NCBI GenBank assembly: GCA_019358935.1
Contig: JAHHIK010000020.1
Coordinates: forward strand, 26,806-90,805
Length of the DNA: 64,000 nucleotides
Source of the DNA: Tolypothrix carrinoi HA7290-LM1
Lineage (GTDB): Bacteria; Cyanobacteriota; Cyanobacteriia; Cyanobacteriales; Nostocaceae
Direction of reading: 5' to 3'
Shown: piece after piece, positions 4,635 to 56,623 of the stretch
Position numbering within the stretch: the first letter of the stretch is position 1
How the letters are laid out: each line of letters starts with the position of its first letter
Notes under the pieces: model-generated
What the model was told of the DNA's origin: nothing
Database searches by the model: none
What the model saw: the letters and a program-made list of their open reading frames with translations, nothing else
Translations under genes and position numbers: made by a program

Positions 4635-4668
4635 CACTCTCTCAAACTGCCTTTTCCCTGTTTTCCTT

Positions 4669-4753: not shown

Positions 4754-4811
4754 CACTCATTCCTGCCCTTTTTCAAGTAAGGTCAAACTGACAGAACATA
4801 AATCTAAATAA

Positions 4812-32529: not shown

Positions 32530-32717
32530 CGTACTAATTGGTAATTGGTAATTGGTAATTGGTAATTGGTAATTGGTAATTGGTAATTGGTAATTCCTCC
32601 TTGTCCTCCTTGTCCCCCTTGTCCCCCTTGTCCCCCATTCCCCATTCCCCATTACCAATTCCCCATTCCCCATTCCCCAAATTAAATTTTCTACTAAACA
32701 GTGCGGCACGAAAAACT

Positions 32718-33827
32718 GTGGTTAAAAATTTCCAGAAATTCTTTAGCAAATCAAATAAAGGAGTTGGGATAGAACTTGCTCCTGAGCGGGTGAATATAGC
32801 TCAACTACGCAAGCAGCGTCAAGGCTTAAAATTAGACTCCTTAACATCGGTTCCGGTTCCAGAAGGCATTTTTGTTGATGGTCAAATTACCGACCCCGCA
32901 GCAATGGCGGAATTAATTCAGCAAGCGCTAGCTGAAAGTAAAATTAAAGCTTCTCGCGTTGCGACTGCTGTACCGGGACGAGAATCAATTGTACGTTTGA
33001 TTCCGGTGCCAGCAGAGTTAGATGACAAAGAACTGCGGGAAATGGTGCTTAACCACGAAGCCGGTTTGTATTTGCCTTATCCCCGCGAAGAAGCTGATGT
33101 TGATTATCAAAAACTTGGATACAAAGTAGATGAAGATGGCATTGAAAAAGTGGAGGTGCTTTTAGTTGCCACCCGTAAAGATATTACTGATTCTTACGTA
33201 AGTACGTTTGAGCAAGCGGGATTGCAAATTGATGTTTTAGAAATTAGCAGTTTTGCTTTAATTCGGACAATTCGCGAAAAATTGCGGCAATTTGGACCGC
33301 AAGAAGCGGCAGTGTTAGTTGATATCGAATTCGACAGTACAGAGATAGCGATCGTTGTTAACGGTGTGCCGCAATTTTCGCGCACAGTGCCAATAGGCAC
33401 TTATCAAATGCAAAATGCTTTGTCAAAAGCGATGAATTTACCGACGTCACGAGACACGGAACTGTTGCAGGGAATGATTATTCCGACGACACCGATGGAG
33501 GATCAAGGAAAAACCGGTGTTACTGGCGTTAATCCTGGTATGGCAGCGATGATGCGAGTATTGGGAGAATTAACAGATGAACTGCGCCGTTCAATCGATT
33601 TTTACCTCAATCAAGCTGAAAATTTAGAAATAGCAGAGATTATGTTGGCAGGTTCGGGAGGGGGACTGGGGCAGTTAAATGACTTTTTCACCCAAAGATT
33701 AAGTTTACCAACTACTCAAATCGATCCGGTGGGTGCGCTGTCGTTGGAAATTGACGAGGAAAAATATCCCTTGGTGCAACGTCCTGGATTGGGAATAGTA
33801 CTTGGTCTAGGAATGCGGGAGGCGTAA
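32718..33827 (+). CDS. pilM: Type IV pilus assembly protein PilM
   Basis: GVGIEL, EAGLYLPYPREEADVDY, ELRRSIDFY; first gene of the pilMNOQ run. Confidence 0.93.
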   Translation: MVKNFQKFFSKSNKGVGIELAPERVNIAQLRKQRQGLKLDSLTSVPVPEGIFVDGQITDPAAMAELIQQALAESKIKASRVATAVPGRESIVRLIPVPAELDDKELREMVLNHEAGLYLPYPREEADVDYQKLGYKVDEDGIEKVEVLLVATRKDITDSYVSTFEQAGLQIDVLEISSFALIRTIREKLRQFGPQEAAVLVDIEFDSTEIAIVVNGVPQFSRTVPIGTYQMQNALSKAMNLPTSRDTELLQGMIIPTTPMEDQGKTGVTGVNPGMAAMMRVLGELTDELRRSIDFYLNQAENLEIAEIMLAGSGGGLGQLNDFFTQRLSLPTTQIDPVGALSLEIDEEKYPLVQRPGLGIVLGLGMREA

Positions 33828-33831
33828 CAAA

Positions 33832-34599
33832 ATGTACAGTTTAGAGGTTAATTTTCTTAAAGACCGCAAACCTGAACCGAAAAATACGAGCAAGAAGCCA
33901 AGACAGGCAATTTCTCTTGGTGATTTAACACCGATATATATAGGAGTTACTGTTGGTGTGATTTTCCCGGCTTTGGTGGGGGGTGGATGGTGGCTTTTGC
34001 AAGCGAAAAATACTGAGTTAGGAGAGAATATAGCCAAACTGGAGCAGCAGAATCAAGAATTAGAGTCGAAAGTTGGGAATATTAACAAAATCAAGGAAGA
34101 AACGAACAAAGTTAAACAAGAAACTCAAGCTTTAGTGACTGTATTTGACCAAATTCGACCTTGGTCAGCGATGTTGCAAGATATGCGCGATCGCATTCCC
34201 GCAACTGTGCAAATTGAAAATATCAAGCAAATCGCACCCACTACCGCTGAAGGGCAGCAACCAGCCAATCCCGCTGGAGGAGTGGAAATTACTGGCTATG
34301 CTCGCTCTTTTAACGATGTCAACGATTTCTTACTCAGTCTGCAACAGTCGCGTTTCCTCAAATCCACCGAGGGCAAAATTACCACAGCAGAGTTAGTAGA
34401 TGCCCCCATACCTCCCGGTACTGTTCAACCGCCAAATAGTGTATTAATTAAACCACCACAACTAGTTAAATATACGATTCAATCCAGCATGAGTGATGTT
34501 CCGGCTTCTGAGTTAACCCGCGAGTTGGAGCAAAAAGGCACAGTCGGATTAGTCAGTAGAATTCGCAGTCTGCAACAAACAGGAGTCATTTCTAGATGA
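33832..34599 (+). CDS. pilN: Type IV pilus assembly protein PilN
   Basis: EVNFLKDR motif, TM helix, coiled coil, PWSAML; synteny. Confidence 0.9.
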   Translation: MYSLEVNFLKDRKPEPKNTSKKPRQAISLGDLTPIYIGVTVGVIFPALVGGGWWLLQAKNTELGENIAKLEQQNQELESKVGNINKIKEETNKVKQETQALVTVFDQIRPWSAMLQDMRDRIPATVQIENIKQIAPTTAEGQQPANPAGGVEITGYARSFNDVNDFLLSLQQSRFLKSTEGKITTAELVDAPIPPGTVQPPNSVLIKPPQLVKYTIQSSMSDVPASELTRELEQKGTVGLVSRIRSLQQTGVISR

Positions 34600-35351
34600 C
34601 CTACAGTGATGATTTAAATTTTGGCGAGCAAGACGGTGCATTTGAGGCGGCTGGTTCTGCTTATCCTACCGCATTTGGCATTACCTTCACACCAAAAATC
34701 ATTGGCATTTTGGCGGGGGTTTTGGGTTTGGGGGTAGCAGCTTTTATGCTTTTTAACTTAGTGATGCCGGCTTGGGACACCTTTCAACAACAGCAAGCAA
34801 AAAGCCAAGACTTAGATTCGCAAATTCAGCAAAAGAATGCCAGCATCCAACAAATTGGCAAAGTTAAAGAAGAACTAGCGCAATCAAAACAGCAACAAAT
34901 CCAAGTTTTATCTTTATTTGCGAATGAGAAAACCTTGGATACATTGCTACTTGATTTGAATCGCTTAGTTGAATCTGGTAATGCTCAAATTCCGGCAAAT
35001 GCAGTTAAGGCAAAACTGAAGAAGTTTGCACCATCCGGACAGAAACCAGAACCGATTATCGATAGTAGTTTTGGACCACTAGTAAACGGCAAGTTGAAAC
35101 GTAGCACTATTAATATTGAAATTCAAGGAACCTATGAACAAACACAATCGATTTTCCGCAATATAGAACGTTTACAGCCTTTGTTGCTAGTTAAAGATTA
35201 TCAATCAACTTTGGCACCAGAACCTCCTGCTGAACCAGGTAAAAGCGTGCGTCGAATTGGTCCAGCACCGCTTACTACATCCTTCGTGTTACAAGCTTTG
35301 ATGCCACTTAATGCCGAGGAAGTAGCAGCAGCAGCCAAAGCGAAGAAGTGA
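34596..35351 (+). CDS. pilO: Type IV pilus assembly protein PilO
   Basis: TM helix, coiled coil, GTYEQTQSIFRNIERLQPLL; synteny. Confidence 0.88.
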   Translation: MTYSDDLNFGEQDGAFEAAGSAYPTAFGITFTPKIIGILAGVLGLGVAAFMLFNLVMPAWDTFQQQQAKSQDLDSQIQQKNASIQQIGKVKEELAQSKQQQIQVLSLFANEKTLDTLLLDLNRLVESGNAQIPANAVKAKLKKFAPSGQKPEPIIDSSFGPLVNGKLKRSTINIEIQGTYEQTQSIFRNIERLQPLLLVKDYQSTLAPEPPAEPGKSVRRIGPAPLTTSFVLQALMPLNAEEVAAAAKAKK

Positions 35352-35364
35352 ATGAGACTCTCGC

Positions 35365-35482
35365 AAAGCCCTCAGGCTGGAAGCCTGGGGCTACACGGAC
35401 AAAGCCCACCTTCGTGGGCTGGATTTCTTAGCCCACGAAGGTGGGCTTCGTAAGATTAGCCCCAGGCTTATAGCCTGCGGGC
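35365..35482. repeat. REP/MITE-like multi-hairpin element between pilO and pilQ
   Basis: AGCCCACCTTCGTGGGCT and AGCCCACGAAGGTGGGCT hairpins, flanked by CAGGCT...AGCCTG hairpins in inverted arrangement. Confidence 0.7.
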
Positions 35483-35520
35483 GGGGGAACTAAATAATTT
35501 TATAAAGTGAGGAATGAACT

Positions 35521-37926
35521 GTGAAACTTCACGGTAATAGTTTTATATTGGCAGCCGCTGCTTTTGTCTTTGTAGCAGCTCAACCTGTGTCAGCACAGAC
35601 TACTGAAATTACTGATGTACAGTTAAATCCCGTTGATGGGGGAATTAATCTTGTATTAAAAACTTCTTCAGGTTCGCGCCCTCAAGTTTTTACCACAAAA
35701 CGCGGTAAAAGTCTAGTAGCAGATATTATTAATACGCAATTACGTTTACCTCAAGGTAATAGTTTCCGCCAAGATAACCCCGCACCGGGAATTACCTCAG
35801 TAGCAATCAATCAGCTTGATGCTAATAGCATTCGGGTAACGGTGATTGGAGAGAAAGGAGTTCCCAATACTCAGCCTGTGAAGCGAGGAGGCAGCGGAAT
35901 TACCCTCAGCTATAGCCCAGGAACGGAAGTAGCGGCAGGGGCACCAATTCCGACAGCGCCGGCTGCTTCTACCCCATCGCGATCGGCTCCTCTTGTCCCT
36001 AACCCGCAAGTGACGGTGGACGGGACACCGGCACAAGCAGCCGGTCCTGGTCAACCTGGGACAGCCGCACCGCCTTTTTTACCGAGAGCGGTTGCCCCAC
36101 CAGTTGGAGATATTGCGATTTCTAATACTGATGCTTCTCCGAGCGTGATTGATTTGGGAACTCAAGAACGTGTCCCCCGCTTGGTGTTACGAGATGCTCC
36201 AGTACGTGAAGTTTTATCACTGCTTGCTCGTGCTGCTAATTTGAACTTGGCTTACGCAGCAGGGGGACAAGGTGCTGATGGTAAGCCGGCTGCTGCTGCT
36301 GGGGGTGATGGACTGACAATTTCTTTAGATATTGAAAACGAGCCAGTGCAAGATGTTTTTAACTACGTTTTGCGTTTGAGTGGTTTAGAAGCTAACCGCA
36401 GCGGACGCACGATTTTTGTGGGAAGTAACTTACCCAGTGCCACCCGTGATACGGTGATGCGTAATTTGCGACTCAATCAGGTGACGGTAGGAGTCGCCGT
36501 AAACTTTTTGGTCAGCTTAGGGGCAGAAAGTGCCATCAGCCGCGAACGACAAGTTACCAGCGTTAATGCTGTGCCTGTAGGTGCTGGAGTTGCGCCAATC
36601 ACTCAATCTCAGACGACTACAGAAAGCAGAGTAGATACTCAACGTGTTGATTTTCAAGACTCAAAGCCATTACTAAGAGGTTTGCAAGCACTAGGAGACG
36701 AGCGCACCAATTCCCTAACTTTGATTGGTTCACCGAAGCTAGTTGAGATGGCGATGGCGCAACTAGGTCAGCTTGATATCCGGCGTCGTCAGGTAGCAGT
36801 TAACGTCAAAATTATCGACGTTAACCTCTTGAATACCCAAGACCAAAATACTAGCTTTTCCTTTGGCGTTGGCAATAACTTCTTTACGAGTGATGGTGGT
36901 GCAGCATCTCTGAATTTTGGCGGTTCCAGACCAGCTACTAGTGTTGAAGCTGCAAACAGTGTGACTAGTACGCCGGTCATCCAGAATCCAATTACAGGAG
37001 CGCCCTTTTTTGACCCAAACAGCAGCGTAAATGTTCCAGGGACTACGCCTGGTACGATTGTGGTAGATTCTAACGGCAATACTTTTAGAACTCAAAATTC
37101 AGGAACTGGCAGTTTTTACACACCTGTTGCGCCTACTGGTAATCCCTTACGACCTGGTTTTTCTAGCATCACTCCAGCAACAGATAATATCGTGACACTG
37201 AATGCTGATGGTACTACGAGTGTCTCACAAGGTACTCTTGGTTCCGCTGTTGCATCTCTCCCCTCTTTATACCAATTCCCCAAACGTTTTCTCGCGAGTT
37301 TGCAAGCTCAGGTGCAAAGTGGCAATGCCAAAATTTTGACTGACCCAACTTTAATTGTGCAAGAAGGTCAACAGGCTAATGTCAACTTGACACAGCAAGT
37401 GGTAGGCAATATTAAGAGGGAAATAGTTCGTGACGACAATATTGCTACAGAAACAATTTCCGCCGAGAAAGATAACGTGGGTTTAACCTTAGCTGTTAAA
37501 GTTGATCGGATTGATGATAACGGTTTTGTCTCTTTATCGGTAGCTCCTGTTGTCAAAGCACCCCAAGCTCCAGCTACCATAAATGTTGGAGGCGGCGGTA
37601 GTCAACAAATATTTTTGGTGTCTGAACGCTCCCTTAATTCTGGTTTGATTCGCCTGCGAGATGGTCAGACGCTAATTCTCAGTGGGATAATTCAAGATAC
37701 AGACCGGACAAGTGTATCTAAGATTCCCATTTTGGGTGATATTCCTCTGCTTGGTTCGCTGTTTAGAAAGACAAACAGACAGAATCAGCGTCAAGAGGTG
37801 ATTGTATTACTCACACCGCAAATTATGGATGACTCAGAGCGCTCCTCCTACGGCTATAACTACACTCCTAGCCCTGAGGTGCGGCGAACTTTGGAGCGTA
37901 GTGGCTTGAAGGTTCCAGGGAAATAA
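35521..37926 (+). CDS. pilQ: Type IV pilus secretin with AMIN domain
   Basis: Signal peptide, AMIN-like N-terminus, secretin C-terminus KIPILGDIPLLGSLFR...VIVLLTPQI. Confidence 0.93.
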   Translation: MKLHGNSFILAAAAFVFVAAQPVSAQTTEITDVQLNPVDGGINLVLKTSSGSRPQVFTTKRGKSLVADIINTQLRLPQGNSFRQDNPAPGITSVAINQLDANSIRVTVIGEKGVPNTQPVKRGGSGITLSYSPGTEVAAGAPIPTAPAASTPSRSAPLVPNPQVTVDGTPAQAAGPGQPGTAAPPFLPRAVAPPVGDIAISNTDASPSVIDLGTQERVPRLVLRDAPVREVLSLLARAANLNLAYAAGGQGADGKPAAAAGGDGLTISLDIENEPVQDVFNYVLRLSGLEANRSGRTIFVGSNLPSATRDTVMRNLRLNQVTVGVAVNFLVSLGAESAISRERQVTSVNAVPVGAGVAPITQSQTTTESRVDTQRVDFQDSKPLLRGLQALGDERTNSLTLIGSPKLVEMAMAQLGQLDIRRRQVAVNVKIIDVNLLNTQDQNTSFSFGVGNNFFTSDGGAASLNFGGSRPATSVEAANSVTSTPVIQNPITGAPFFDPNSSVNVPGTTPGTIVVDSNGNTFRTQNSGTGSFYTPVAPTGNPLRPGFSSITPATDNIVTLNADGTTSVSQGTLGSAVASLPSLYQFPKRFLASLQAQVQSGNAKILTDPTLIVQEGQQANVNLTQQVVGNIKREIVRDDNIATETISAEKDNVGLTLAVKVDRIDDNGFVSLSVAPVVKAPQAPATINVGGGGSQQIFLVSERSLNSGLIRLRDGQTLILSGIIQDTDRTSVSKIPILGDIPLLGSLFRKTNRQNQRQEVIVLLTPQIMDDSERSSYGYNYTPSPEVRRTLERSGLKVPGK

Positions 37927-44605: not shown

Positions 44606-45055
44606 CTAACTTTCGGTTTTGTTCTGCCGATAGCCGTAAAAGTTAATATTGTATTCAGTAATTTTCACTCCGGTTTGTTCTTCAACTTGGCGGATAAAAT
44701 CTTCTGGTAGTTCGATATGAACATCGAGAATTTGATTTGTATCTATGCAGTTGACATGACTGTGGGAATCACTGATATTACCGTATAAACGTCCATCGCA
44801 GCGTTCGATGCACTCAATGATATTTTGACTGGATAACGCTTCTAAGTTTTGATATACAGAGGTATGTCCGATTTCTTTGCCTTCTTGATTTAGGCGATCG
44901 TAAATCTCTCTGGCAGAAAGATGCTCTTTTGCTTGCCACAGTAGTTCTAAAATAAAGCGACGCTGCCGGCTAACGCGCATACCCAGTGTTTGGCATCTGT
45001 CAATAGCATCTTCTAGAGAACGAATTGGTTTTGTAGAGATGACTTGTTTTTGCAT
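44606..45055 (-). CDS. Fur-family transcriptional regulator
   Basis: GMRVSRQR, HLSAREIY, IGHTSVYQNL, HSHVNC. Confidence 0.9.
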   Translation of the reverse strand: MQKQVISTKPIRSLEDAIDRCQTLGMRVSRQRRFILELLWQAKEHLSAREIYDRLNQEGKEIGHTSVYQNLEALSSQNIIECIERCDGRLYGNISDSHSHVNCIDTNQILDVHIELPEDFIRQVEEQTGVKITEYNINFYGYRQNKTES

Positions 45056-45347: not shown

Positions 45348-45860
45348 CTACTTGTGTAGGCGATTTTCCTCTAGGAGGCAAGTAATCATAGCGGTTCTGG
45401 AAGTGACACCGAGTTTGACAAAAATACGCCGCAGGTGAGTAGCGACAGTCCAAGGGCTAATTTGAAGCTTAATGCCAATACATTTGTTAGAAAGACCCTG
45501 TGCGACTAATTTAGCGATCGCCTGTTCGCGAGGGCTGAGATTAATTTTTTCTTCAGAATTATCAGGATACTCGTAAGAATGGTCTGCATCTCCATCAAGT
45601 GAAGGGTTTTCCTGGGATGGAAACGGTGGGTGGGAGATTGATTTTTCCTGGCTACAACGCACCAGGTAGTAATGTACACCATCTACATCAGATTCAAAAA
45701 TTACTTCATTAACCATCATGTTGGTGGTTTGAACCAGCTTGCGAGGAGGAGAACTAGTAACTTGTCTTACTAAAACCTTTAGCAGCGCTTGTTGTTCTAA
45801 CGCAAGCAAATTTTGATTTTCGGATGCAGCAACCAGTTTCTTCCTCTTGAAGGTCGTCAT
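45348..45860 (-). CDS. LuxR-family HTH regulator (no receiver domain)
   Basis: LSPREQAIAKLVAQGLSNKCIGIKLQISPWTVATHLRRIFVKLGVTSR. Confidence 0.9.
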   Translation of the reverse strand: MTTFKRKKLVAASENQNLLALEQQALLKVLVRQVTSSPPRKLVQTTNMMVNEVIFESDVDGVHYYLVRCSQEKSISHPPFPSQENPSLDGDADHSYEYPDNSEEKINLSPREQAIAKLVAQGLSNKCIGIKLQISPWTVATHLRRIFVKLGVTSRTAMITCLLEENRLHK

Positions 45861-46180
45861 GGTTCGTATTCATCCTGTTGATTTTACTGATACTAAATTC
45901 AAATATTTAGGCAACAGTTCCGCAACTAACACAAAAACTTTTTTTAAGTCATAACTTATTACACTATTTCAAATGGCAAATGTAATCACCCTAGTGTGTA
46001 CTTACAGTTTGCCACCAATAAACGTATAATTGAATCTTTTTGATACAACTCATAACAGTCACCCTCTGAGTAAATTACGGCTTACCAAAGCTAAATATAT
46101 TACTTTTACTACTGAATTAATCGCTAATTTTAAGCAGAAATATCACTAAAATAGTATTAATTCATACAGTATATCTTTGA

Positions 46181-46228
46181 TGGTAGCTCAAATGTGTGAC
46201 ACTCAACCGAGCTACCAAAAATGTGTTT
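46181..46228. promoter_or_regulatory. Candidate LuxR operator
   Basis: Inverted repeat TGGTAGCTC (46181-89) / GAGCTACCA (46209-17) overlapping two direct boxes, TAGCTCAAATGTGT and TACCAAAAATGTGT, in the divergent intergenic region. Confidence 0.45.
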
Positions 46229-46277
46229 CCCTAGAAAAAGCGACTTGTGGCAACGTTCCCAGAACAGTTATACCTAA

Positions 46278-47174
46278 ATGCGTAAGCATTCTCATCCACG
46301 GAGTCACAAGATGTTGGACGGAGAAACGATGCAGCATGAATTTGAAGATGAATTTGAAGACGAATTTGAGAGTGAATACTCCAACGAATTCGAGGATGAA
46401 TATGAAAATGAAGAATTTCTCGGTTCAATTGCCAAAAGCGTAGGCAATATGCTTGTGGGCGATGGAGAAAGCGAGTATGAAAACGAATATGAAAGCGAAG
46501 CCTTCTTAGGAAAACTCCGCCGACTAATTCCCAAAATAACTCCCATACTCAAAAAGATAGCCCCGGTGGCTGCGGGTGCTGTAGGTACAGCGATTGGTGG
46601 TCCTGCTGCGGGTGCTGCTTTAGGTGCGATTACCAGTAAGTTAGCTCGCGAAAGCGAATTTGAGTTTGAATTAACCAGCGAATTTGACAACGAGTACGAA
46701 TGGACAGGGGAAATGACCAGTGAGTACGAATACGAATCCGTACCACAATATGAAGCTTTGACAGAAGCTTTAGCCACCGCTGCCAGCAAAGTTGAAAGCG
46801 AAGCCGAAGCCGAAGGCTACGCCGGTGCTTTTACAGCCAGAATTATCCCCATCCAATCGCCAGCCATGCGTCAAATCACCCCAAGTTTGATTCGCGGTTC
46901 GGTCTACTTAACGCGCACCCTGCGGAAATCTCCGACTACTCGCCCATTAGTCAAAGTAATTCCCTCAATTGTTGACAGAACTAGTAAGACCTTAGTTAAA
47001 CAAGCAGCAAAAGGACAGCCAATTACACCCCGCACGGCTGCTCGTGTGATGGCTGGTCATACCCAAAAGGTACTTAGCAGCCCTGCAACCGTAGCCAAGA
47101 CGCTAATGGGTTCACCTAAACCAGGGCGGAAAATGAAAAAGCCTGTACCAGCTAAACGATCAATGGGTAATTGA
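46278..47174 (+). CDS. Acidic-spacer/amphipathic-segment protein A (start may be ATG 46329)
   Basis: EFEDEFE-type spacers alternating with FLGS.. / FLGK.. segments, a glycine zipper, and a basic C-terminal domain. Confidence 0.8.
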   Translation: MRKHSHPRSHKMLDGETMQHEFEDEFEDEFESEYSNEFEDEYENEEFLGSIAKSVGNMLVGDGESEYENEYESEAFLGKLRRLIPKITPILKKIAPVAAGAVGTAIGGPAAGAALGAITSKLARESEFEFELTSEFDNEYEWTGEMTSEYEYESVPQYEALTEALATAASKVESEAEAEGYAGAFTARIIPIQSPAMRQITPSLIRGSVYLTRTLRKSPTTRPLVKVIPSIVDRTSKTLVKQAAKGQPITPRTAARVMAGHTQKVLSSPATVAKTLMGSPKPGRKMKKPVPAKRSMGN

Positions 47175-47333
47175 TACTGGGAATTTAAACGCACAGTAGG
47201 GTGCGTTACTCCGTGAACGCACCCTACAAAGTTTTTAGGTAATCTTATACCGATAAGAGAGTAAGTACATAACAGCGTTGCATTATGCCTTGCAGCATTG
47301 ACAAGACAATTTAAACACAGGAGAACCTAAACT

Positions 47334-48086
47334 ATGTTTGAGTATGAACTGGAAAATGGTTTAGACCGGGAATTTGAGTTTGAATTTGAGAGTGCATACG
47401 AAAGCGAGTACGAGAGTGAGGAATTTTTAGGGAGTATATTGAGCAAAGTTGCACCAATGGCAATTAATGCTGTTGGTAGTCTCCTAGGTGGAGGAGACAA
47501 TGAATTTGAATTTGAGGACGAGCAAGAATTATTTTTGGGGTCAATTGGAAACGTAATTGGCGGTTTGTTAGGTGAGGGCGAATACGAGTTTGAGAGTGAG
47601 TTTGAATCATCTCAGGCAAACGAGTATGAAGCGTTGATGGAGCATTTGGGATATATGGCGGCTAACAGTGAAAGCGAAGCTGAAGCCGAAGCTTTTCTGG
47701 GTGCATTAATTCCCTTGGCTGCTAAAGCTTTACCTGGAATTGTGAAAGCTGCTTCTACGATTATCCCGAAGGTAGCGCCAAAACTAATTCAAGGTGCATC
47801 GAGAATCGGACGGGCAATGTTCCGCAATCGCAGAACCCGTCCGCTACTGAAAACTATGCCAAAGATAATGCAAGGCACTGTCAGCAATCTGGCTCGGCAA
47901 GCACAACAGGGCAAACCAATTACACAAAAGTCTGCGGTGCAAACTTTGGCGCGTCAAACTGCTCAAGTTTTAGGTAAACCGAAAGTAGCAGCTAATTTGA
48001 TGAAGCGATCGCGCGTTATCCATAGCAAAAGATGTCCCCATTGTCGTCACATCTCTAAACAGCCTGGGCAAGCAGTTTATCGGTAA
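47334..48086 (+). CDS. Acidic-spacer/amphipathic-segment protein B, paralogue of A
   Basis: AGGAGA RBS; three FLG-initiated segments; YEALxExL...AA..ESEAEAE and TRPL.K..P.I...T...L..QA..G.PIT shared with A. Confidence 0.85.
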   Translation: MFEYELENGLDREFEFEFESAYESEYESEEFLGSILSKVAPMAINAVGSLLGGGDNEFEFEDEQELFLGSIGNVIGGLLGEGEYEFESEFESSQANEYEALMEHLGYMAANSESEAEAEAFLGALIPLAAKALPGIVKAASTIIPKVAPKLIQGASRIGRAMFRNRRTRPLLKTMPKIMQGTVSNLARQAQQGKPITQKSAVQTLARQTAQVLGKPKVAANLMKRSRVIHSKRCPHCRHISKQPGQAVYR

Positions 48087-48277
48087 TGGGCATTGGGCAT
48101 TGGGCATTGGGCATTGGGCATAGGTTTGGCTGTGCGGTCTTGGGGATCACCTGCGTGGAGCACCTGCCGTCATTGGGCATTGGGCATTGGGCATTGGGCA
48201 AAATTCCTCTCCCCCTGCTCCCCCTCCTCCCCTGCCCCCCTGCCCCCCTCCTCCCCTATAGTTGACTCTTTGGACTA

Positions 48278-49657
48278 GTGGACGCATGTATGAACGGACT
48301 GTTTGAAACGCTGATAGAGGATACAGCGGATGACTGGGGCAATAATTATCAGGTTGCGTCATTATTGTCCCAAAATAATATACCCGCAGACCGCTTTGTA
48401 GAACCACCGAATTTCGATTTTTGGTTGCGGGTACAGGCACTAAATGTTACCAGACACGCGGCGGCGTTGCGTTCGTTTCGACACGATGAATTTGGCACAG
48501 ATGCTGCCAGTCCCAGCGATGCTCACATTGATGCGGTGAATCAACTTTTATTGCAGTTGCGATCGCATTTGCAACGGATATCAAAGACAGTGGGAAGAAG
48601 CGCCCAAGCAGCGATTCAGCAGCCGGATACAGATGTGTTGCAACAATTGATGAGTCATAAAGACCAAGCGCACAACTTAGTCCGAGCGATCGAGCAAATC
48701 TGGGATTTCTACTTAGAGTTATTCGGACAAAGACAGTCCCAATTTGGTAATTGGCTATTAGCTTGCGATCGCATCGCTCTCGATTGTTATCAGTATATTT
48801 ACATGGGCTTGGGACGCTCTCGGTCAATTCCAGCACCCGCGCCGTTTTCTTATATGAAAACTGGCTTTTCTCCGGCGACATTTCGGCGCGGTATTCCCTT
48901 AACTAAACTGAGTCAACAGATTAATCCATTTCCGTTGATTCAACTACCTTATCATCGCCTGGTCAACCCGTGGACATTGGGGGCAATTTTGCATGAAGTT
49001 TCCCACAATCTGCAAACCGATTTAAAACTGCGACAGACTATTCCTTACGCGATCGCTAAACGTCTCCTGAAAGCGGGAATGAGTAAATTTGTTGCCGCTA
49101 CCTGGACTCGTTGGCATAGCGAAACCTTTGCTGATATGTCTGGTTTGTTACTGGGGGGACCTTATGTTGTCGCTTCCTTAATGGATATTGCCGCGCGATC
49201 GCCTCAAGCTACCCTTAATTTTCACCCAGGCGCCCCCCATCCCACCCCGTATCTGCGAGTATTCATTAGCACCGAATTACTACGCCGCATGGGTTTTTCC
49301 AAAGCTGCAAATAACTATCAAACCATTTGGGAACAAATTTACCCCAACCCCAGCGCAGGCAATATTCCTAAAGAAATTCTCGAAACCTTTAGTAAAGCCA
49401 ATCCCTTAGTTGTAGACACCATTTGTTACACCCCTTACAAGGAACTGGGGGGCAAAACTTTAGCTGAGGTGACAGGATTCAAATTCCAACACCAGCAAAT
49501 GATTTTAGAAGCGGGACAACGTTTAGCAACAGGGAACGATCCGGGAATTATTCCAGAGCGATTTTTGATTGGTGCATCGCGTGCTGCACTTGATAAAAAG
49601 CTAGCAACACCTGGGGTGATTACTCAAAACTTTTACAAAGCCCTGGCAAGGAGATAA
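48278..49657 (+). CDS. Putative zinc metallopeptidase (gluzincin-like)
   Basis: ILHEVSHN, downstream ETFAD and HPTPYLR. Confidence 0.7.
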   Translation: MDACMNGLFETLIEDTADDWGNNYQVASLLSQNNIPADRFVEPPNFDFWLRVQALNVTRHAAALRSFRHDEFGTDAASPSDAHIDAVNQLLLQLRSHLQRISKTVGRSAQAAIQQPDTDVLQQLMSHKDQAHNLVRAIEQIWDFYLELFGQRQSQFGNWLLACDRIALDCYQYIYMGLGRSRSIPAPAPFSYMKTGFSPATFRRGIPLTKLSQQINPFPLIQLPYHRLVNPWTLGAILHEVSHNLQTDLKLRQTIPYAIAKRLLKAGMSKFVAATWTRWHSETFADMSGLLLGGPYVVASLMDIAARSPQATLNFHPGAPHPTPYLRVFISTELLRRMGFSKAANNYQTIWEQIYPNPSAGNIPKEILETFSKANPLVVDTICYTPYKELGGKTLAEVTGFKFQHQQMILEAGQRLATGNDPGIIPERFLIGASRAALDKKLATPGVITQNFYKALARR

Positions 49658-49663
49658 AAAATT

Positions 49664-51472
49664 ATGATCACATATCGGATTCGCGGTCAAGTACTTAAAG
49701 ATGAAAAAAATGAAAAACTGATTCCAGAAGCTGAAAAAAATGAAAAACTGATTCCAGAAGTTGTGCCTCTGCGAGTTGAGGCTTGGGATAAAGATGAACA
49801 CTTTGATGACCGGCTTGACAGCAGCAAAACTGATTTAGGCTTTTTTGACATCGAATTTACAGATGAAGATTTCAATCAAGATACAGAAGAAAGAGATTGG
49901 ATACCTGATGTTTTCTTCGTAGTTTATCGTGGCAAAGATTTAGTGGGTAGCACTGTTGAGGCTGACATTCCCGGTATTGTTTGGAAATATTTTCTCGTTG
50001 TGTCTCAGCAATCTCCATTTCTCCCTTCATTACCTCTAAAATTGAATGGACAAGAAACTAAATACTCAATTAAAATTCAGGCAGCAGGGATAGTTCCGGA
50101 AACGCCGACACAACCCAAACCTTTAAATGGGTTTCAAGTATATAACGATAATGTAGTTGATATTTTGCCCACAATCGAGAATGTTAACTCTCTAGCTGCA
50201 AGTCGAAATTCGGCTTTAGTTACTGTTGATAATAGTGGTGGTTCTTTACAGCAAATTGTCGATAATGCCCTCGGTCAAGTGCTGTGTAGAAGCTCTAAAA
50301 ATGACCCCAAAGCCTTTCTAGATTCGCTGACTAAAACCTTTACTCCTCAAGAAAGTAACGGACGCATTACTTATAATTGGACGCCTTGCAGCTACAACAC
50401 AGTCCAAACTGAACTAGGGGGGACAGTGAGTGGGGCACAAGCTAGCCTTTTTCATCGTGCCAAAACCTTATTAGATGATGCCTTGCGGCAGTTAGATAAA
50501 CTTTATGCCCTTAACCCCGCAGCCGATCCGCAGAATATGGAAGCAGTGCGATCGGTTGTTCGGACACAAATAGTTGAATTAATTAATGAATTGGGAACTC
50601 AAGGGGGACCACGCACTCAGCGCGTTGATAGTTTGTTTCAGCTATTGGTAGGAGATGCAGAAGAAAACGATAGCTTTGATAAAATTGGGGGACAGCTAAA
50701 AGATTTGGCTGAGATTTTTGGATTAACGCGATCGCGTGTCAACAACGTTGATGAAGAACAAAATTTCAGCAACTACCTAATTATCAAAGATTCGCTACTT
50801 TCGATCAGAGACAGTTGGAATGCTTTTAATGCTGATACTGGTGGTGGTGCTTACATTGGTACGCAATTGGTCTTGTTATCTCAAGCTTTGTCAGTCGTTG
50901 CCGAATCAGTTCAAGAAACTTATCGGATTATGGATAGTGTTTTCCTCGGTCCTGCCGAGAGACAAGCTGTTTGGATTGATTTTGCCAAAGCTAGACAAAA
51001 TCCCCCAAATCGCGATCGCAAGTCGGCATTTCCTTTACCAGATGGCACTCAATACACTATCGAAGAAACCAAACAATTAAAGCCGGCGATGACAATCGAA
51101 AAACTGTTGTCATGGACATTAAATTGGTCAACCAAAGAAGCCCCGACAATTGCGATCGCCGGTGGCAAATTAGGCATCGCCAAATCAATCGTCGAAACCT
51201 CAAACCGATTAATGATTTTGATGCAAGCGGCTTCTTTCGTGCGCGTTCCCAACACAGCATTTCAACGAGCAGGTGTAGTTCGTGCGTTGAGAGATTTGGC
51301 ATTCCAATTGTATGAAGTCAAACGTTTGGCAGTAGAACTAATTCCACCTTTAACTGGTGAAAAAATGCCTGATGCAGATGATGTGAAAGACTTGTTGCAA
51401 GATATCCGAGATTTGTTGAAAAATCCCCAGCGTCAAGCATTTATCAGGCAAATCATCAACCGCAACAGTTAA
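49664..51472 (+). CDS. Hypothetical protein: N-terminal transthyretin-like beta-sandwich plus large helical region
   Basis: LRVEAWDKD...DDRL...TD.GFFDIEF...PDVFFVVY; starts 6 nt after the previous gene. Confidence 0.65.
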   Translation: MITYRIRGQVLKDEKNEKLIPEAEKNEKLIPEVVPLRVEAWDKDEHFDDRLDSSKTDLGFFDIEFTDEDFNQDTEERDWIPDVFFVVYRGKDLVGSTVEADIPGIVWKYFLVVSQQSPFLPSLPLKLNGQETKYSIKIQAAGIVPETPTQPKPLNGFQVYNDNVVDILPTIENVNSLAASRNSALVTVDNSGGSLQQIVDNALGQVLCRSSKNDPKAFLDSLTKTFTPQESNGRITYNWTPCSYNTVQTELGGTVSGAQASLFHRAKTLLDDALRQLDKLYALNPAADPQNMEAVRSVVRTQIVELINELGTQGGPRTQRVDSLFQLLVGDAEENDSFDKIGGQLKDLAEIFGLTRSRVNNVDEEQNFSNYLIIKDSLLSIRDSWNAFNADTGGGAYIGTQLVLLSQALSVVAESVQETYRIMDSVFLGPAERQAVWIDFAKARQNPPNRDRKSAFPLPDGTQYTIEETKQLKPAMTIEKLLSWTLNWSTKEAPTIAIAGGKLGIAKSIVETSNRLMILMQAASFVRVPNTAFQRAGVVRALRDLAFQLYEVKRLAVELIPPLTGEKMPDADDVKDLLQDIRDLLKNPQRQAFIRQIINRNS

Positions 51473-51578
51473 TAGTCAACAGTAGTCAACTAACAGTCAA
51501 CAGTGAATATTTGGACTACTGACTACTGACTACTGACTACTGACTAATGACTAATAACTAACAGCCAGGAGACAAATT

Positions 51579-52706
51579 ATGTCAACGACAGGAGAAAATC
51601 AAGATTTATACGATCGCTTTGCGGCTTTAAAAGAAACCCTTGCAGATAGGCTAGCACCGCAACTCATCCAAAATCCGCAACTGGCTGATGCTTTGACTCA
51701 GCAAATTGAGGATCTGCTATCACAGGTACTGACAAATCAAGGGCAAATGGCAGCACCACCAGATGGTGGACTAGCCGAGTTAATTGGGATTGGTTCTCAA
51801 GCAGCCAGCAAAGTCAATTCAACGCGCTTGCCGCAGGGTGTAGAAGATTATGACGAACAGATAGCGAGCGATCGCATTCTCGCAGTTGCCGATTTATACT
51901 ATCTCTACCAACACGAAAAAGTCGGCGTTTTTCGTGCCGTGAGGAAACTCCAAGAACTATTCAACGCCGGTGCTGTCAGATTATCCAACGGTGACGGTGC
52001 TTATGGTTTGTATCGCTTCGATCGTCGTAGTGTGTTGCGCTACACCCAAAAAGAACGGTTGCAAACCTACCGCCGGGTATTTGGTTACACCACTGTCCCA
52101 CCGATGTCTAGCGCCAAACCGAATCCGCAATTTCACACTTTATTTACGCAGTTTATTAACAACGTCGCGGAGTTTTGGCGCGATAAACGCATCTCAGATG
52201 TAATTCGCGATCGCGCTTATGACCCCAGTTTTGGCAGCATTGCCACCGTGCGGCGAGCGGGTTTGGATTTGCGAAATAACCTGAAATGGTCTTCCTACGG
52301 TCACGTCACCGTCCTCAGAATTGAAGTTTTGCAACTGCTAGAAGAAGCCTTCAAAATCTTGGGTGCGGATGATGTCAAAAAACTCTTTGGTGCAGACAAC
52401 GCTTGGGATGTAGTCGAAGAAATTATGCTGCGCTACTTCAAACAAGATGTTAACGCCTCACAGCGACACCGCATGGCTGTTGCCGGACGCAGTATTATCC
52501 GCTGGTTAGCTCAAAAATACATCCTGAATAATTCACGAGCCGAATTTGAAGCCTTAGTCCGGGAAATTGCTGATGTTGCCGAAGAATGGCTCACCAGTGC
52601 CGAAACCTTGGGCATTGCTTTTCGCGGTCATACCAAACGAGTAGTTACCTTTGAACCTCGTCAAAATGGTCACAGACCCTTGAGGAGTGCAGGAGAAGGA
52701 TATTAA
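51579..52706 (+). CDS. Hypothetical helical protein
   Basis: 375-aa ORF with AGGAGA RBS; no recognised catalytic motif. Confidence 0.7.
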   Translation: MSTTGENQDLYDRFAALKETLADRLAPQLIQNPQLADALTQQIEDLLSQVLTNQGQMAAPPDGGLAELIGIGSQAASKVNSTRLPQGVEDYDEQIASDRILAVADLYYLYQHEKVGVFRAVRKLQELFNAGAVRLSNGDGAYGLYRFDRRSVLRYTQKERLQTYRRVFGYTTVPPMSSAKPNPQFHTLFTQFINNVAEFWRDKRISDVIRDRAYDPSFGSIATVRRAGLDLRNNLKWSSYGHVTVLRIEVLQLLEEAFKILGADDVKKLFGADNAWDVVEEIMLRYFKQDVNASQRHRMAVAGRSIIRWLAQKYILNNSRAEFEALVREIADVAEEWLTSAETLGIAFRGHTKRVVTFEPRQNGHRPLRSAGEGY

Positions 52707-52860
52707 TTAAAAGGGGAAGGGGGATAAGGGGGACAAGGAGGACAAGGGGGATAAGGGGGACAAGGAGGACAAGGGGGACAAGGAGGACAAGGGGGACAAG
52801 GAGGACAAGGGGGAGGGCAACTTAGTATGACACAGAACTCAGTACTCAGGACTTAGTATT

Positions 52861-54135
52861 ATGAGTAACACATTTACAGAGCAGCTATTAAACGGCTACT
52901 CAGAATTAGAGCAGGGTCAATTAGAACTACGCGGACAAGCAGGACGTAACCCTGCAAATAGGTTTGCCACTTACCTCAAGCGCCAAGGCTTCTTGCCGAC
53001 GGTGCATTTCCCTCAACGGTTCCTCAAGCGTGTTTTGTCTGCTGGTGTACGCTTTGACCCACGCACCTTTAAAAGTGAGTTTTACAAAGCAAAACACTAT
53101 CGCCAAACGCGGTCAGGTTACAACACCCGCATTGCTGTTGTCCGGGGTGTGCCGATTATCTATCGTCCTGGCGGTGAAGACGGCAATCGGATCGTGTTAG
53201 TTACAACTTTAGAACAAGGCGATAAATTGCCACCTGTTGAACCTGCCTCACCCCCAAGACAGCGCGAAATGGAAACGAATCTAGAGGCAGAATTAGAACA
53301 ACTTCTAGAAAAAATTGACGCAGCTATTGAAAGCGATGATTCCGAGCAAGTATCCTATGACCGATACATAGAAAACGAATATTTGCAGCGAAAATCGCAA
53401 AATAAATCTGAAGAAGAGGCAGAAGCCTTTGTTGTCGAGAACCGACTGCTGAAAATTCCCCCAGGACACGAAACCTTAAATAGTCAAGCAGCGCATGGTT
53501 TGCCCATTTCCAAGACTGAGTTAGACGCGATGAATCGGGGTGTCCGCAGAGTTGATACCGAGAAGCTATCAAACCATTTTAAACCCACCCAGCAACGACG
53601 CCATGCATTACGCCGCTACAAATGCCAAAAACTAGAAGAAGCATTAGCCGAAACTAGACAGCAATTGATGGCTTTGCATGGTAAAGTGCTAAGTGCAACC
53701 AAGCGCTCGAATGCCTTTGAATGGATTGGAGAAGCGCTGCACCTGATTCAAGACTCGTATTCCCCAGCACATACAGCCCGTGAACGTAGTGGTGCAGGTG
53801 CAATTATTTTTATTCGCTACTACGGCATTAAGGGACTTCCCTATCCGCAAGAACACCGAGTTTTTCCGATACGACAACCAGGTCGGCTGATTCCTCTGCC
53901 AGTCGATCCGCGAGATTATGTTAATGTTAGCAACCCCCCAGAAAAAGCTGCTATTGCTGCCAGCCGTGATTTCCTCAAGATGATGTTACTGCATTTGAAA
54001 GGGCGATCGCACCGTTACACTGCTGCTCAATGGAATACTAAACAGCGCAGTGACTTAATTAAATTCATGAACAAGTACTTAATATTAAGTCCGCGTCACA
54101 CCCCCACAAAAACCTTGTACCCAAAATGTCCTTGA
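52861..54135 (+). CDS. Two-module putative effector: small basic RNase-like domain, acidic linker, zinc phospholipase C/P1-nuclease-like domain
   Basis: HFPQRF...IVLVTT N-terminal module; SEEEAEAF linker; GHETL, VRRVD, HALR, GEALHLIQDSYSPAH. Confidence 0.55.
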   Translation: MSNTFTEQLLNGYSELEQGQLELRGQAGRNPANRFATYLKRQGFLPTVHFPQRFLKRVLSAGVRFDPRTFKSEFYKAKHYRQTRSGYNTRIAVVRGVPIIYRPGGEDGNRIVLVTTLEQGDKLPPVEPASPPRQREMETNLEAELEQLLEKIDAAIESDDSEQVSYDRYIENEYLQRKSQNKSEEEAEAFVVENRLLKIPPGHETLNSQAAHGLPISKTELDAMNRGVRRVDTEKLSNHFKPTQQRRHALRRYKCQKLEEALAETRQQLMALHGKVLSATKRSNAFEWIGEALHLIQDSYSPAHTARERSGAGAIIFIRYYGIKGLPYPQEHRVFPIRQPGRLIPLPVDPRDYVNVSNPPEKAAIAASRDFLKMMLLHLKGRSHRYTAAQWNTKQRSDLIKFMNKYLILSPRHTPTKTLYPKCP

Positions 54136-54385
54136 TAGAGCGTATAAAACTCAAAAAGGTACTGTTGTTTACACTTAAATTGAATTTAAAACAACCATAA
54201 ATTGCAGTAGATGCACGGATTAACATTCAGTCAGAGAAATCCGCATAATGACTGACAAACAAATCCGAAAAGCAGAAAATTCAATCGGTAGTTATTACAG
54301 ACAAAAGTAAGGGTACTGAGGAATGGGGAAAGACTTACTCCTTACCGCCCTTAATTAAACAAACAAGAATTAGAGAGGATAAAAT

Positions 54386-56623
54386 ATGCAAAGTAACGGC
54401 TATGGGATGTCTGGCAAAACACAACCGCAAAGCGAAGGTGGCAAGATGCCATCTTTGGGTATGGATTCGCCAAACTTTCCACGGGAGATGCCTAGCGGTG
54501 ATATGAACGCCAGTAATTCTCCTAAGTTGCAAAACGTGCTAGTAGAAATGCGCGTGCCTAAGACTCAAGGAGTATTGGGGGCATCACAGATGGCGGCAGA
54601 AATGAATGCGATCGGCTTTCAATTGGATACCAGCTATGAGCCAGTACCAGTCAGCGCGAGTCAAGATGCAGCCGGTTTATTGGCTGACAATCAAGAAATA
54701 GCGATCGTGCGCGGGGTGGTAGAGGAAAGCAAAATTGAAGAATTAGAAGCACAACCTAACGTAATTAAGGTGTATAAAGATACACCTATTGCCCCCTTTG
54801 AGAGTGCGTTGTTGGAGAAAGCAGACAAAGATTTAGTCATGCCAATGGATGCGACTGGTACATGTCCGATTGGCACATGTGACTGTTCTCCAACAACGGC
54901 AAAGGGAGCGATCGCCGATGTCGTAACTTACTTCGGTGTTGATAAAATATGGGCAGCTGGCTACAAAGGTCAGGGCATTGTCGTTGGTGTTGTCGATGGT
55001 GGCATCACCGCCGAAGGTCGCTACATAGGCGCTTTTGAAACCGATCGCACAATTCCCAACGTCATCGGCGGACCGGCACAGAACTGGGGAACAACAGCCC
55101 GCGCTTGGGGCGAACATGGTAATATGTGTGCTACCGATGTCTTGGGTATGGCTCCAGAAGCCAAACTCTACGATTGTCGCATTTCTGATGGCGGTGCCGT
55201 ATCCACTGCCTTAACAGTATACGAATGGGCAATCAAGCAGCACAAAACTGACGGTACACCTCACATCCTCACCAATAGCTGGGGAATTTACCAAAAAAGC
55301 TGGGATGAATTTTATGCCACAAATCCCGATCATCCTTTCAGCCGCAAAGTTGTAGAAGCAATTAACGAAGGAATTCTCGTCTTGTTTGCCGCTGGTAACT
55401 GTGGTGAAAGCTGTCCAAGTGACAGATGTGGCACCGATAATGGACCAGGCAAAAGCATTTGGGGAGCAAACGGACATCCTTTAGTTATGACTGTGGGTGC
55501 TGTCAACAAAGATGAACAATTTGTAGGTTACAGCAGCCAAGGACCAGCAGCTTTAGATCCTAACAAGCCTGATTTTTGTTCTGTTACTCATTTTCGAGGT
55601 TACTTTGCCTCTGATAACGGCACATCTGCCGCGACACCGATCGCTGCTGGTGTAGTCGCGTTGCTCAAAAATGCCAAACCTAACTTAACTCAAGAACAAG
55701 CAAAAAATGCTCTCAAGAGTACCGCGAAAAATATCGGTGAACCGGGTTGGGACCCGCATTCCGGTGCGGGTATTATTCAGCCAAAAGCTGCCTTTGACTT
55801 GTTGCAACCCCAGTCAGCACAGTGGTCAGAGTGGCAAAAATTAGATGGTAACTGTTTTTCTGCCCCTGCGGTTACGACTTCAGGAGAAAAACGCCTTGAC
55901 ACTTTTGTTCTGGGTGGTGACAGTGCGATATATCACAAGTCCTGGGATGGTTCTACTTGGAGCGAGTGGCAAAACTTGGGCGGATTTAGCTTATCAGCAC
56001 CTGCGGCTGTGACGTTGACATCAAACCGAATTGATACATTTATTATTGGTCAACAGCGCCAACTGCTTCGCAAGTTCTGGGATAATTCTACTTGGAGCGA
56101 GTGGGAAGATTTAGGCGGCTTTTGCAAGCAGGGTGTAGCTGTTTGTTCAGAAGCGAACCGCCTTGATGTGTTTACAATTGGTGCTGACAACGCCACATAT
56201 CACAAATCTTGGGATGGTGCTAAGTGGAGTGAATGGGAAAATTTAGGCGGCTTGTGTTTGTCTGCACCAGCGGCGGTTTCTGCGGGCGCTAACCACGTTG
56301 AATTGTTTGTTAGAGGTGGCGACCATGCGATATACCGCAAGTCCTGGGATGGCGCATCTTGGAGCAATTGGGAAAGCTTGGGTGGCTTGTGGTTATATTC
56401 GCCGGCGGTGACTTCTTGGGGAGCGAATCGGCTGGACGTGTTTGCAGTTGGTACTGATAATGCTTTGTACCGCAAAACCTGGGATAATTCTAGTTGGAGC
56501 GCTTGGGAGAATTTAGCAGGTTCATGCATTTCTGCTCCTGCTGCTGTTTCTACGGGAATCAACCGTATTGACACGTTTGTTGTGGGTGGCGATAATGCTT
56601 TGTACCGCAAATCTTTCAGCTAA
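54386..56623 (+). CDS. S8 subtilisin-like protease with prodomain and six-repeat PLL-like lectin beta-propeller
   Basis: VVDGG, HGNMCA, AAGN, GTSAATP; six WxxWxxLGG..SAPA..RLDxF repeats; no signal peptide. Confidence 0.88.
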   Translation: MQSNGYGMSGKTQPQSEGGKMPSLGMDSPNFPREMPSGDMNASNSPKLQNVLVEMRVPKTQGVLGASQMAAEMNAIGFQLDTSYEPVPVSASQDAAGLLADNQEIAIVRGVVEESKIEELEAQPNVIKVYKDTPIAPFESALLEKADKDLVMPMDATGTCPIGTCDCSPTTAKGAIADVVTYFGVDKIWAAGYKGQGIVVGVVDGGITAEGRYIGAFETDRTIPNVIGGPAQNWGTTARAWGEHGNMCATDVLGMAPEAKLYDCRISDGGAVSTALTVYEWAIKQHKTDGTPHILTNSWGIYQKSWDEFYATNPDHPFSRKVVEAINEGILVLFAAGNCGESCPSDRCGTDNGPGKSIWGANGHPLVMTVGAVNKDEQFVGYSSQGPAALDPNKPDFCSVTHFRGYFASDNGTSAATPIAAGVVALLKNAKPNLTQEQAKNALKSTAKNIGEPGWDPHSGAGIIQPKAAFDLLQPQSAQWSEWQKLDGNCFSAPAVTTSGEKRLDTFVLGGDSAIYHKSWDGSTWSEWQNLGGFSLSAPAAVTLTSNRIDTFIIGQQRQLLRKFWDNSTWSEWEDLGGFCKQGVAVCSEANRLDVFTIGADNATYHKSWDGAKWSEWENLGGLCLSAPAAVSAGANHVELFVRGGDHAIYRKSWDGASWSNWESLGGLWLYSPAVTSWGANRLDVFAVGTDNALYRKTWDNSSWSAWENLAGSCISAPAAVSTGINRIDTFVVGGDNALYRKSFS

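Follow-up and report, generated by a model that had tools for sequence, protein, structure and literature searches.

What is encoded by the group of genes lying between fur and CRR6 in the cyanobacterium Tolypothrix carrinoi HA7290-LM1, and what might its products do? The window analyzed here is a 64,000-nucleotide (nt) stretch of contig JAHHIK010000020.1 (positions 26,806 to 90,805 of the forward strand), and within it a divergent luxR gene and seven co-oriented genes, here called A to G, were found where an earlier reading of the letters alone (the original prediction) had placed them. Family matches within this set were obtained only for luxR (GerE) and G (subtilase and a lectin-like propeller), and searches of Pfam, NCBIfam, PADLOC and PHROGs left A to F without any match that passed the cut-off. 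Likewise, no description of the operon was found in the literature, with subscription papers and supplements (e.g., Additional File 1 of PMC3482391) outside the scope of that search. The system is real and widespread, and apparently undescribed. Judging from sequence, we favor, with a probability of roughly 0.55, an inducible weapon against neighboring cells that would be armed by a protease and would leave the producer independently of signal peptides.

These genes are linked in other genomes as well. E is the most conserved core protein, with 3,284 relatives among 8,000 scored candidates. A GTDB scan gave 356 stretches from which the best 80 were retained, a set biased to close relatives that spans ten phyla. 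The gene counts among these 80 loci are 74 for D, 69 for C, 68 for A, 67 for B, 60 for luxR, 6 for F and 1 for G. Where C or D is absent, the contig ends too early: A/B, C and D are present at each of the 55 loci whose contig extends 8 kilobases (kb) or more upstream of E, and five of these loci have just one A/B gene. Co-occurrence across phyla, the lack of which would have counted heavily against the original prediction, was looked for and is present at every one of these 55 loci, and the proposal that the 602- and 375-amino-acid (aa) proteins D and E belong to the core holds, with A/B and C as further core members. Across 69 loci, C, D and E also show correlated pairwise identities (Spearman 0.66-0.79). 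C and E each match 6 of 301 cyanobacterial genomes; the strong matches to both are in the same five, where the two genes are adjacent, and the sixth is a distant extra for each. The operon is rare elsewhere too, C occurring in 2 of 250 further Actinomycetota and E in 2 of 151 genomes of an acidobacterial family. A quick tree of 78 rows (41 Acidobacteriota and 22 Cyanobacteriota) places the cyanobacterial copies on one branch with a support of 99.

A and B are paralogs (33% identity over 275 columns, E-value 3e-39), mostly 230-460 aa long in the collected loci, in which acidic spacers alternate with amphipathic segments and are followed by a basic C-terminal domain. The spacers have net charges of -7 to -16, and the C-terminal parts of A and B have +22 and +26. 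Segments beginning with FLG number two in A and three in B, so the original prediction of paralogs with Glu/aromatic spacers and FLG-initiated segments was correct. A contains a short FLG helix and a cationic helix-hinge-glycine-zipper segment (+7, hydrophobic moment 0.65), residues 76-123 comprising a cationic helix, a proline hinge and a glycine zipper, and by inspection the core segments of A and B are similar across cyanobacteria, Acidobacteriota, Deinococcus and Streptomyces. Some B proteins also have His- and Cys-rich tails. Of 277 A/B junctions, 166 have Phe and 39 have Trp as their first large hydrophobic residue.

A candidate for the enzyme that would cut these junctions is C, which carries an HExxH motif followed after 38 residues by ExxAD, with H239, E240, H243, E282 and D286 invariant in 67 sequences. 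The gluzincin motif is defined by HExxH with a downstream Glu ligand (ExxxD); C has both parts, as do two distant relatives, and the spacing of its motifs matches the layout of M48 peptidases. The M48 and U49 families themselves (PF01435 and PF10463) gave no match in the 67 C members at an E-value of 1 or below, PDB sequence searches with C returned nothing, and the closest named Atlas clusters are U49/M48 at 0.76, which we treat as a lead only. We propose that C is a soluble gluzincin-like metallopeptidase acting as the maturation protease. Thermolysin-like gluzincins usually cleave before hydrophobic residues.

The slot after E is polymorphic and holds wall hydrolases, proteases, nucleases and phospholipase C (PLC)-like enzymes. 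Per a Pfam scan of 40 slot genes, 16 encode wall-binding or wall-hydrolase proteins, 5 more encode proteases (trypsin- or M35-like), 3 nucleases and 1 a Het-C protein, with 15 unnamed. By a crude test, a signal-like start is present in 1 of 58 slot open reading frames (ORFs) compared with 95 of 392 others. An acidic score with a cut-off of 14, devised after some cargos had been seen, was reached by 126 of 130 A/B proteins, 17 of the 58 slot ORFs and 1 of 460 other ORFs, in keeping with the suggestion that downstream genes would vary and yet bear acidic tags. The original prediction had described that tag as a motif, S-E-[AE]-E-A-E-[AG]-[FY], common to three proteins. It does occur in 3 of 7,997 ORFs of the genome, every one in this locus, but it was derived from the same three proteins, two of them paralogous, and its Ser is not retained in the relatives of F. 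The shared signal is broader than these eight residues: after an acidic spacer comes a large hydrophobic residue, in most cases Phe. No orphan tagged cargo is evident in the genome itself. A tag model made for Acidobacteria matched 2 of 151 genomes, both times directly after E; it was built from such loci, with one of the matched genomes certainly and the other possibly among those used for training.

The slot gene of this locus, F, consists of an N-terminal domain, an acidic spacer and a C-terminal domain that starts at Phe190. The N-terminal domain has 39 relatives, whose C-terminal parts form 20 clusters, among them GIY-YIG, DUF2380, VanY, amidase, OmpA and DUF4056. The neighborhoods of these relatives were checked for a few, namely those in the collected loci and in the sample of 301 cyanobacterial genomes, where the domain occurs three times and always adjoins E. 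A start in which Phe follows acidic residues is also seen in an acidobacterial relative and in a Het-C cargo, and two trypsin-like cargos begin with Glu and then Ile-Ile at this point. A second cargo N-terminal domain, which does not align with that of F, is fused to nucleases in the slots of two loci (L023:11156-15703 and L024:11135-12787), whose slot genes contain long EYEG and basic Ala/Arg/Pro repeats. Immunity genes after the cargo were not evident in any of 11 cargos, a small sample in which only ATG starts were considered; their absence is expected if the cargos are pro-toxins.

The C-terminal domain of F was compared to the zinc-dependent phosphatidylcholine-preferring phospholipase C (PC-PLC). 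Counted from the Phe, residues F1, H14, D43, H59, H105, D109, H115 and H143 are invariant in 6 of 6 relatives. His14 is a ligand in PC-PLC. The order of these residues in F agrees with the published PC-PLC order of W1, D55, H69, H118, D122, H128 and H142, an enzyme that also uses E146 (PMC10420013). For the Listeria enzyme, PMC10576769 describes that the main chain of the first residue binds metal, that the W1F variant stays active, that one extra N-terminal residue abolishes activity and that a metalloprotease (Mpl) removes the propeptide. F provides the best independent clue to the cut site, and its C-terminal domain is a candidate for the zinc-PLC/S1-P1/Het-C fold with its three-metal ligand set, a fold that profiles support weakly. 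If F does have a zinc-PLC fold, it would have to be cut exactly at the junction between acidic spacer and Phe, because the fold needs a free first residue.

D combines a variable immunoglobulin (Ig)-like or transthyretin-like N-terminal region with a conserved C-terminal domain of about 400 aa that belongs to no known family. TTR-52 was detected in 15 of 72 D proteins (E-value ≤0.1), and CarboxypepD_reg, SdrD_B, Big_5, TIG or PG_binding in some; such variable N-termini would suit a target-binding part. D has no detectable paralogy to E or C, and PDB searches with E, C and D profiles gave no match. E is predicted to fold as a domain made of helices only, with a hairpin at the N-terminus and an arm (pLDDT 89, pTM 0.80); an earlier AlphaFold model from 41 close sequences had a pLDDT of 42 and was not used. 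Foldseek searches of the model against PDB and BFVD yielded no E-value below 0.001, so the structure prediction and Foldseek comparison proposed with the original prediction return a confident fold and no structural match. The best hit of a VIA fold search (Z 6.2) covers the N-terminal hairpin alone, with none at 8 or above, and all scores of an Atlas feature search with E were below 0.8. No HK97, bacterial microcompartment, jelly-roll or other known shell fold is listed by these fold searches for the all-helical model, and no E relatives were found in viral contigs (IMG/VR). We would like to note that the absence of a fold match neither proves a new fold nor excludes membership of a family. 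A two-copy complex prediction scored 0.01 and gives no evidence either way. We infer that E may serve as a scaffold.

The LuxR protein is of the GerE type and has a short, family-specific N-terminal domain, and a hidden Markov model of that domain singles out the linked gene among the 20 GerE-like ORFs of the genome. Among 61 scorable loci, luxR is divergent and upstream in 31 and downstream in 23, with none seen in 7. A motif, AA(A/G)N-G(C/T)GACT, lies about 70 nt 5' of the first A/B start in 47 of 64 loci, compared to 0 of 52 control windows and at most 3 in shuffles, and the copy in the window is the top position weight matrix match in its own genome. Repeated half-sites are found upstream of the core motif and a -10-like box 21-23 nt downstream, a spacing typical of activator sites that overlap the -35 region. 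In three divergent loci and in one complete genome with the operon, no copy of the motif was detected. LuxR is probably the dedicated regulator of the operon. Linkage and promoter are observed, and probable control by LuxR, which the original prediction had suggested, is well supported by the dedicated LuxR clade and the conserved motif, to which LuxR would bind.

We propose the following course of events. The linked LuxR-type activator would switch on the operon from A through E and the cargo, and A, B and the cargo would be made in an inactive form, masked by the Glu-rich spacers that are plain in their architecture. These products would assemble on D and E, with E as the scaffold, D as a variable target-binder and the basic A/B domains holding the acidic leaders; this is the weakest step. 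C would cut N-terminal to the hydrophobic residue, in most cases Phe, that comes after each acidic spacer, thereby freeing the amphipathic helices of A and B to breach membranes and giving cargo such as F the free N-terminus that it would require, a step strongly suggested for F. Export would bypass Sec and Tat, with lysis of the producer as the probable route, and wall hydrolases, nucleases, proteases or lipases, to judge from the types of cargo, would act on other cells. A more specific version, possible yet doubtful, is an attack particle that would mature in the manner of a non-enveloped virus, with an E shell or scaffold of a new helical fold, D spikes, acidic-tagged enzymes and a gluzincin that unmasks membrane-penetrating A/B helices and activates the cargo. 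The E fold would then be the hub of a wider family that takes in a second operon with a subtilase, four paralogous proteins and a giant multi-hydrolase cargo.

Several points weigh against a weapon of this kind. The cleavage, the particle, the export route and the target proposed above are predictions. An hhalign comparison of C with M48 reached a probability of only 3.9%, and the PLC assignment of F consists of the residue pattern and weak Pfam scores (best E-value 0.0085), PDB sequence searches with its C-terminal domain being without a match. The tag score is low in many slot genes, among them the near-identical ortholog of F (13, under the cut-off), and at least three loci (L030, L039 and L044) have no cargo-like gene after E. 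A search for fusions of the A/B domain retrieved three longer proteins, none of them a clear toxin fusion. The absent immunity genes are equally compatible with programmed self-lysis, in which the A/B helices would form holin-like pores and the cargo would attack the wall, membrane and DNA of the producer itself, for altruistic death, abortive infection or the release of DNA into biofilms. The abundance of peptidoglycan-binding and hydrolase domains in a cargo that has no signal peptides fits such lysis, as do the lack of a conserved neighboring transporter and the patchy retention of the operon (5 of the 301 genomes). We nevertheless consider it unlikely, as the turnover of cargo, with some 20 C-terminal types on one N-terminal domain, exceeds what suicide needs, the variable Ig-like N-termini of D suggest outside targets, PADLOC anti-phage models leave A to F unmatched, and the operon has a dedicated activator and promoter instead of a sensor.

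The genes linked to the operon outside cyanobacteria are a further point that a pure weapon leaves unexplained: of 55 such loci, 43 have an M20 peptidase, 36 an amidohydrolase, 34 a small helical gene and 20 a glutamate decarboxylase-like gene. (Across L032-L086, the genes seen to travel with the operon are those for the M20 peptidase, the amidohydrolase, a 187-aa unnamed protein and the glutamate decarboxylase-like protein.) These four may recycle the Glu-rich spacers. They could also draw on an intracellular stress or storage body in which the polyanionic and polycationic parts of A/B would form a condensate with D and E to buffer glutamate, metal or pH, an idea that the His- and Cys-rich tails of some B proteins and the lack of an export signal would suit. 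This linkage is mostly acidobacterial, however; M20, amidohydrolase and decarboxylase genes accompany 0, 3 and 0 of 25 cyanobacterial loci and were not found in the genome studied here, and nuclease, wall-hydrolase and PLC-like cargo would have no place in such a body, which we regard as very improbable. Somewhat less so, but still improbable, is an antimicrobial pathway resembling those of ribosomally synthesized and post-translationally modified peptides (RiPPs), with A and B as multi-core precursors in the manner of frog or insect prepro-peptides, C as the leader peptidase, D and E as chaperones, the cargo as opportunistic, and the M20 peptidase and amidohydrolase trimming or recycling the spacers. 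The repeated units of acidic spacer and Phe-started amphipathic helix, the alternating Glu-X spacers and the linked peptidases recall such a pathway. In contrast to its usual products, the cores are by inspection conserved across phyla and not hypervariable, A and B carry a large basic domain, folded enzymes bear the same leaders, and no transporter, modifying enzyme or exporter was found among the conserved neighbors within 10 kb.

The protease-armed weapon that we favor has likenesses to several known systems. Zhang et al. 2012 (PMC3482391) describe polymorphic toxins, with those linked to Photorhabdus virulence cassettes (PVC) and other extracellular contractile injection systems (eCIS) as the closest case. 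Shared with the present operon are a fixed N-terminal part with exchanged toxin domains, including nuclease, Het-C, OmpA and peptidase domains, a HExxH metallopeptidase proposed for processing and, in PVC toxins, the lack of immunity genes. F resembles polymorphic toxins in its conserved N-terminal module with variable C-terminal toxin domains, but no known secretion trafficking domain (type V, VI or VII secretion, PVC, MuF or Sec) was seen in the core or the scanned cargo. What sets the present operon apart is the lack of a sheath, tube, baseplate, AAA ATPase, RHS, WXG/LXG or DUF4157-type domain, a peptidase encoded by a core gene of its own, an acidic spacer as the shared signal, and D and E proteins of no known family. 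A search of A to F and the conserved neighbors within 10 kb gave no eCIS/PVC, type VI secretion or tailocin genes. F would be like the zinc-PLC/S1-P1/Het-C enzymes in its ligand order and in a first aromatic residue that would need release by a metalloprotease, as with Mpl; it differs in having no signal peptide, a pro-region made of a folded domain and an acidic spacer, and no sequence-level match. 

In animal antimicrobial peptide precursors (cecropin, melittin and frog-skin peptides) and in the lytic peptides of non-enveloped viruses (adenovirus protein VI and birnavirus pep46), acidic pro-segments mask Phe- or Gly-started amphipathic helices until a dedicated protease releases them. A and B would be similar to both in acidic masking, the helix-hinge-glycine-zipper layout and a dedicated protease; they differ in being part of a bacterial operon, in lacking a signal peptide and in their basic C-terminal domain, and neither a viral fold match nor viral relatives were found for E. 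Cyanobactin pathways (PatA/PatG) share the cyanobacterial host, a nearby signal-less subtilase and repeated recognition sites, but here the subtilase is unlinked, no YcaO or PatG domains were found, and the precursors are 250-450 aa long with conserved cores. The umbrella toxin particles of Streptomyces share the idea of a multi-protein particle, a polymorphic toxin and a protease-lectin fusion, but no ALF repeats, trypsin domain or Tat signal was seen in A to G, and G is an S8-type passenger. That no known secretion, RiPP or defense system would be recognized in the locus, as originally stated, was therefore borne out.

A distant clade of E (hhalign 99.9%) anchors a second operon type in metagenomes, comprising an activator, a multi-hydrolase of 1,000-1,700 aa, four paralogs whose family is unnamed and whose tails are rich in Ser/Thr, together with a subtilase and a pair of E-like genes; the unnamed parts have no Pfam names, and A/B, C and D have no detectable counterpart in it. 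Loci L092-L171 (e.g., L096:1926-17462 and L112:3083-17787) are of this type, with a sigma54 or BTAD activator, the giant multi-hydrolase carrying amidase, C70, C92 and trypsin domains, an unnamed 350-aa protein, and long and short E-like genes. Two cyanobacterial variants bridge both operon types. One (L182:6276-14423, genome G162) has an 833-aa acidic precursor with long cationic amphipathic helices, a distant C, a weakly E-like 407-aa protein (48%, E-value 1.8e-4) and a protease cargo with an acidic leader and repeated SPF motifs. The other (L183:1-14422, G294) is a second-type operon with very acidic proteins, acidic spacers and FLG helices, adjoining transposase-like genes (Tn7-like by inspection). 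A further divergent locus (L181:4369-15535, G204) holds two acidic precursors, C, a 660-aa protein, a collagen-like protein, E and a downstream luxR, and the 660-aa protein in the position of D does not align to D. The set that recurs is an E-like protein, a signal-less protease, amphipathic helices with acidic spacers, and a hydrolytic cargo.

The last gene, G, is a neighboring passenger outside the core. It lies beside E in 1 of 80 loci, and its close orthologs, conserved at about 70% and often adjoining CRR6, occur in a fifth of the family (20 of 101 genomes, compared with 5 for E and 3 for both), so that 17 of the 20 are without E. The order fur-G-CRR6 exists without the operon at two loci, the tag score of G is low, a generic subtilase PADLOC model matches it, and the promoter motif was not found at it. 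The inclusion of this subtilisin-lectin protein as a second protease of the system is accordingly abandoned. Its companion claim, that the last two genes are variable cargo, stands for the polymorphic slot of F and fails for G, and the delivery system as first envisaged keeps its core proteins and its variable tagged cargo without G.

The same locus is present in a Tolypothrix genome at 91-100% identity. In cyanobacterial loci, fur lies beside the operon five times and CRR6 seven times, and one relative (L188:440-1500, G316) retains luxR and the promoter motif with A to F deleted and G about 600 nt further on, a snapshot of operon loss. These neighbors and this relative point to an operon long resident at this site and repeatedly lost. 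HIP1 sites, originally called frequent, are at ordinary density (13 in 11.3 kb, or 1.15 per kb compared to 0.99 per kb genome-wide), which is still consistent with long residence. One copy of the operon is on a Deinococcus plasmid record (L080), a possible route of transfer.

Features of the locus are listed in Table 1. The start of A is most likely at 46311 (287 aa), as GGAG precedes it and the promoter lies upstream, and that of C is probably at 48290 (455 aa), the Atlas entry for C beginning at residue 5. By hydropathy alone, a crude test, A to G have neither an N-terminal hydrophobic stretch nor a transmembrane segment, in agreement with the earlier remark that no signal peptide is obvious. 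The hairpin between A and B is not conserved, a strong hairpin 3' of A being present in 4 of 61 loci. A generic promoter and terminator scan performed at chance level, and Rfam gave no matches within the window. Tandem repeats of 7-9 nt fill intergenic gaps (48087-48257, 51514-51561 and 52717-52814), and short tandem repeats between genes are usual in heterocystous cyanobacteria; a 30-nt duplication lies close to the start of D (49698-49760). Elsewhere in the window, nitroreductase, TauD dioxygenase, O-methyltransferase and major facilitator superfamily transporter genes stand in a row at 1855-7347, possibly a small biosynthetic cluster, and ordinary type IV pilus genes (pilM, pilN and a secretin) at 32580-37926.

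Table 1. Coordinates in the window of the operon, its promoter region and its flanking genes.
Feature	Position	Strand	Remarks
fur-labelled gene	44606-45055		flank; label from the original prediction
luxR	45348-45860	-	PF00196 (GerE)
promoter region	46185-46274	+	half-sites 46194 and 46209; core AAAAAGCGACT 46235-46245; -10-like box 46269-46274
A	46311-47174	+	core pro-protein; ORF-finder start 46278
hairpin	47196-47227	+	12 pairs; between A and B
B	47334-48086	+	paralog of A
C	48290-49657	+	HExxH metallopeptidase-like; ORF-finder start 48278
D	49664-51472	+	602 aa; core
E	51579-52706	+	375 aa; core
F	52861-54135	+	424 aa; polymorphic cargo; N-terminal domain ~52918-53280, Phe190 at 53428
G	54386-56623	+	745 aa; PF00082 subtilase and lectin-like propeller; passenger
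CRR6			flank; PF08847

New routes of protein delivery in bacteria are rarely found, and this operon, with five unnamed core proteins, spans ten phyla that include many soil groups whose competition is poorly known. It offers handles that can be tested, namely a regulator, a promoter, a predicted cut site and a short tag with which proteins of choice could be loaded, and has cultured hosts in Tolypothrix, Scytonema, Silvibacterium, Streptomyces piniterrae and Deinococcus altitudinis. If the proposed weapon is real, it would account for many orphan hydrolases that carry an acidic leader but lack a signal peptide, and would give bacterial counterparts to the antimicrobial peptide precursors of animals.

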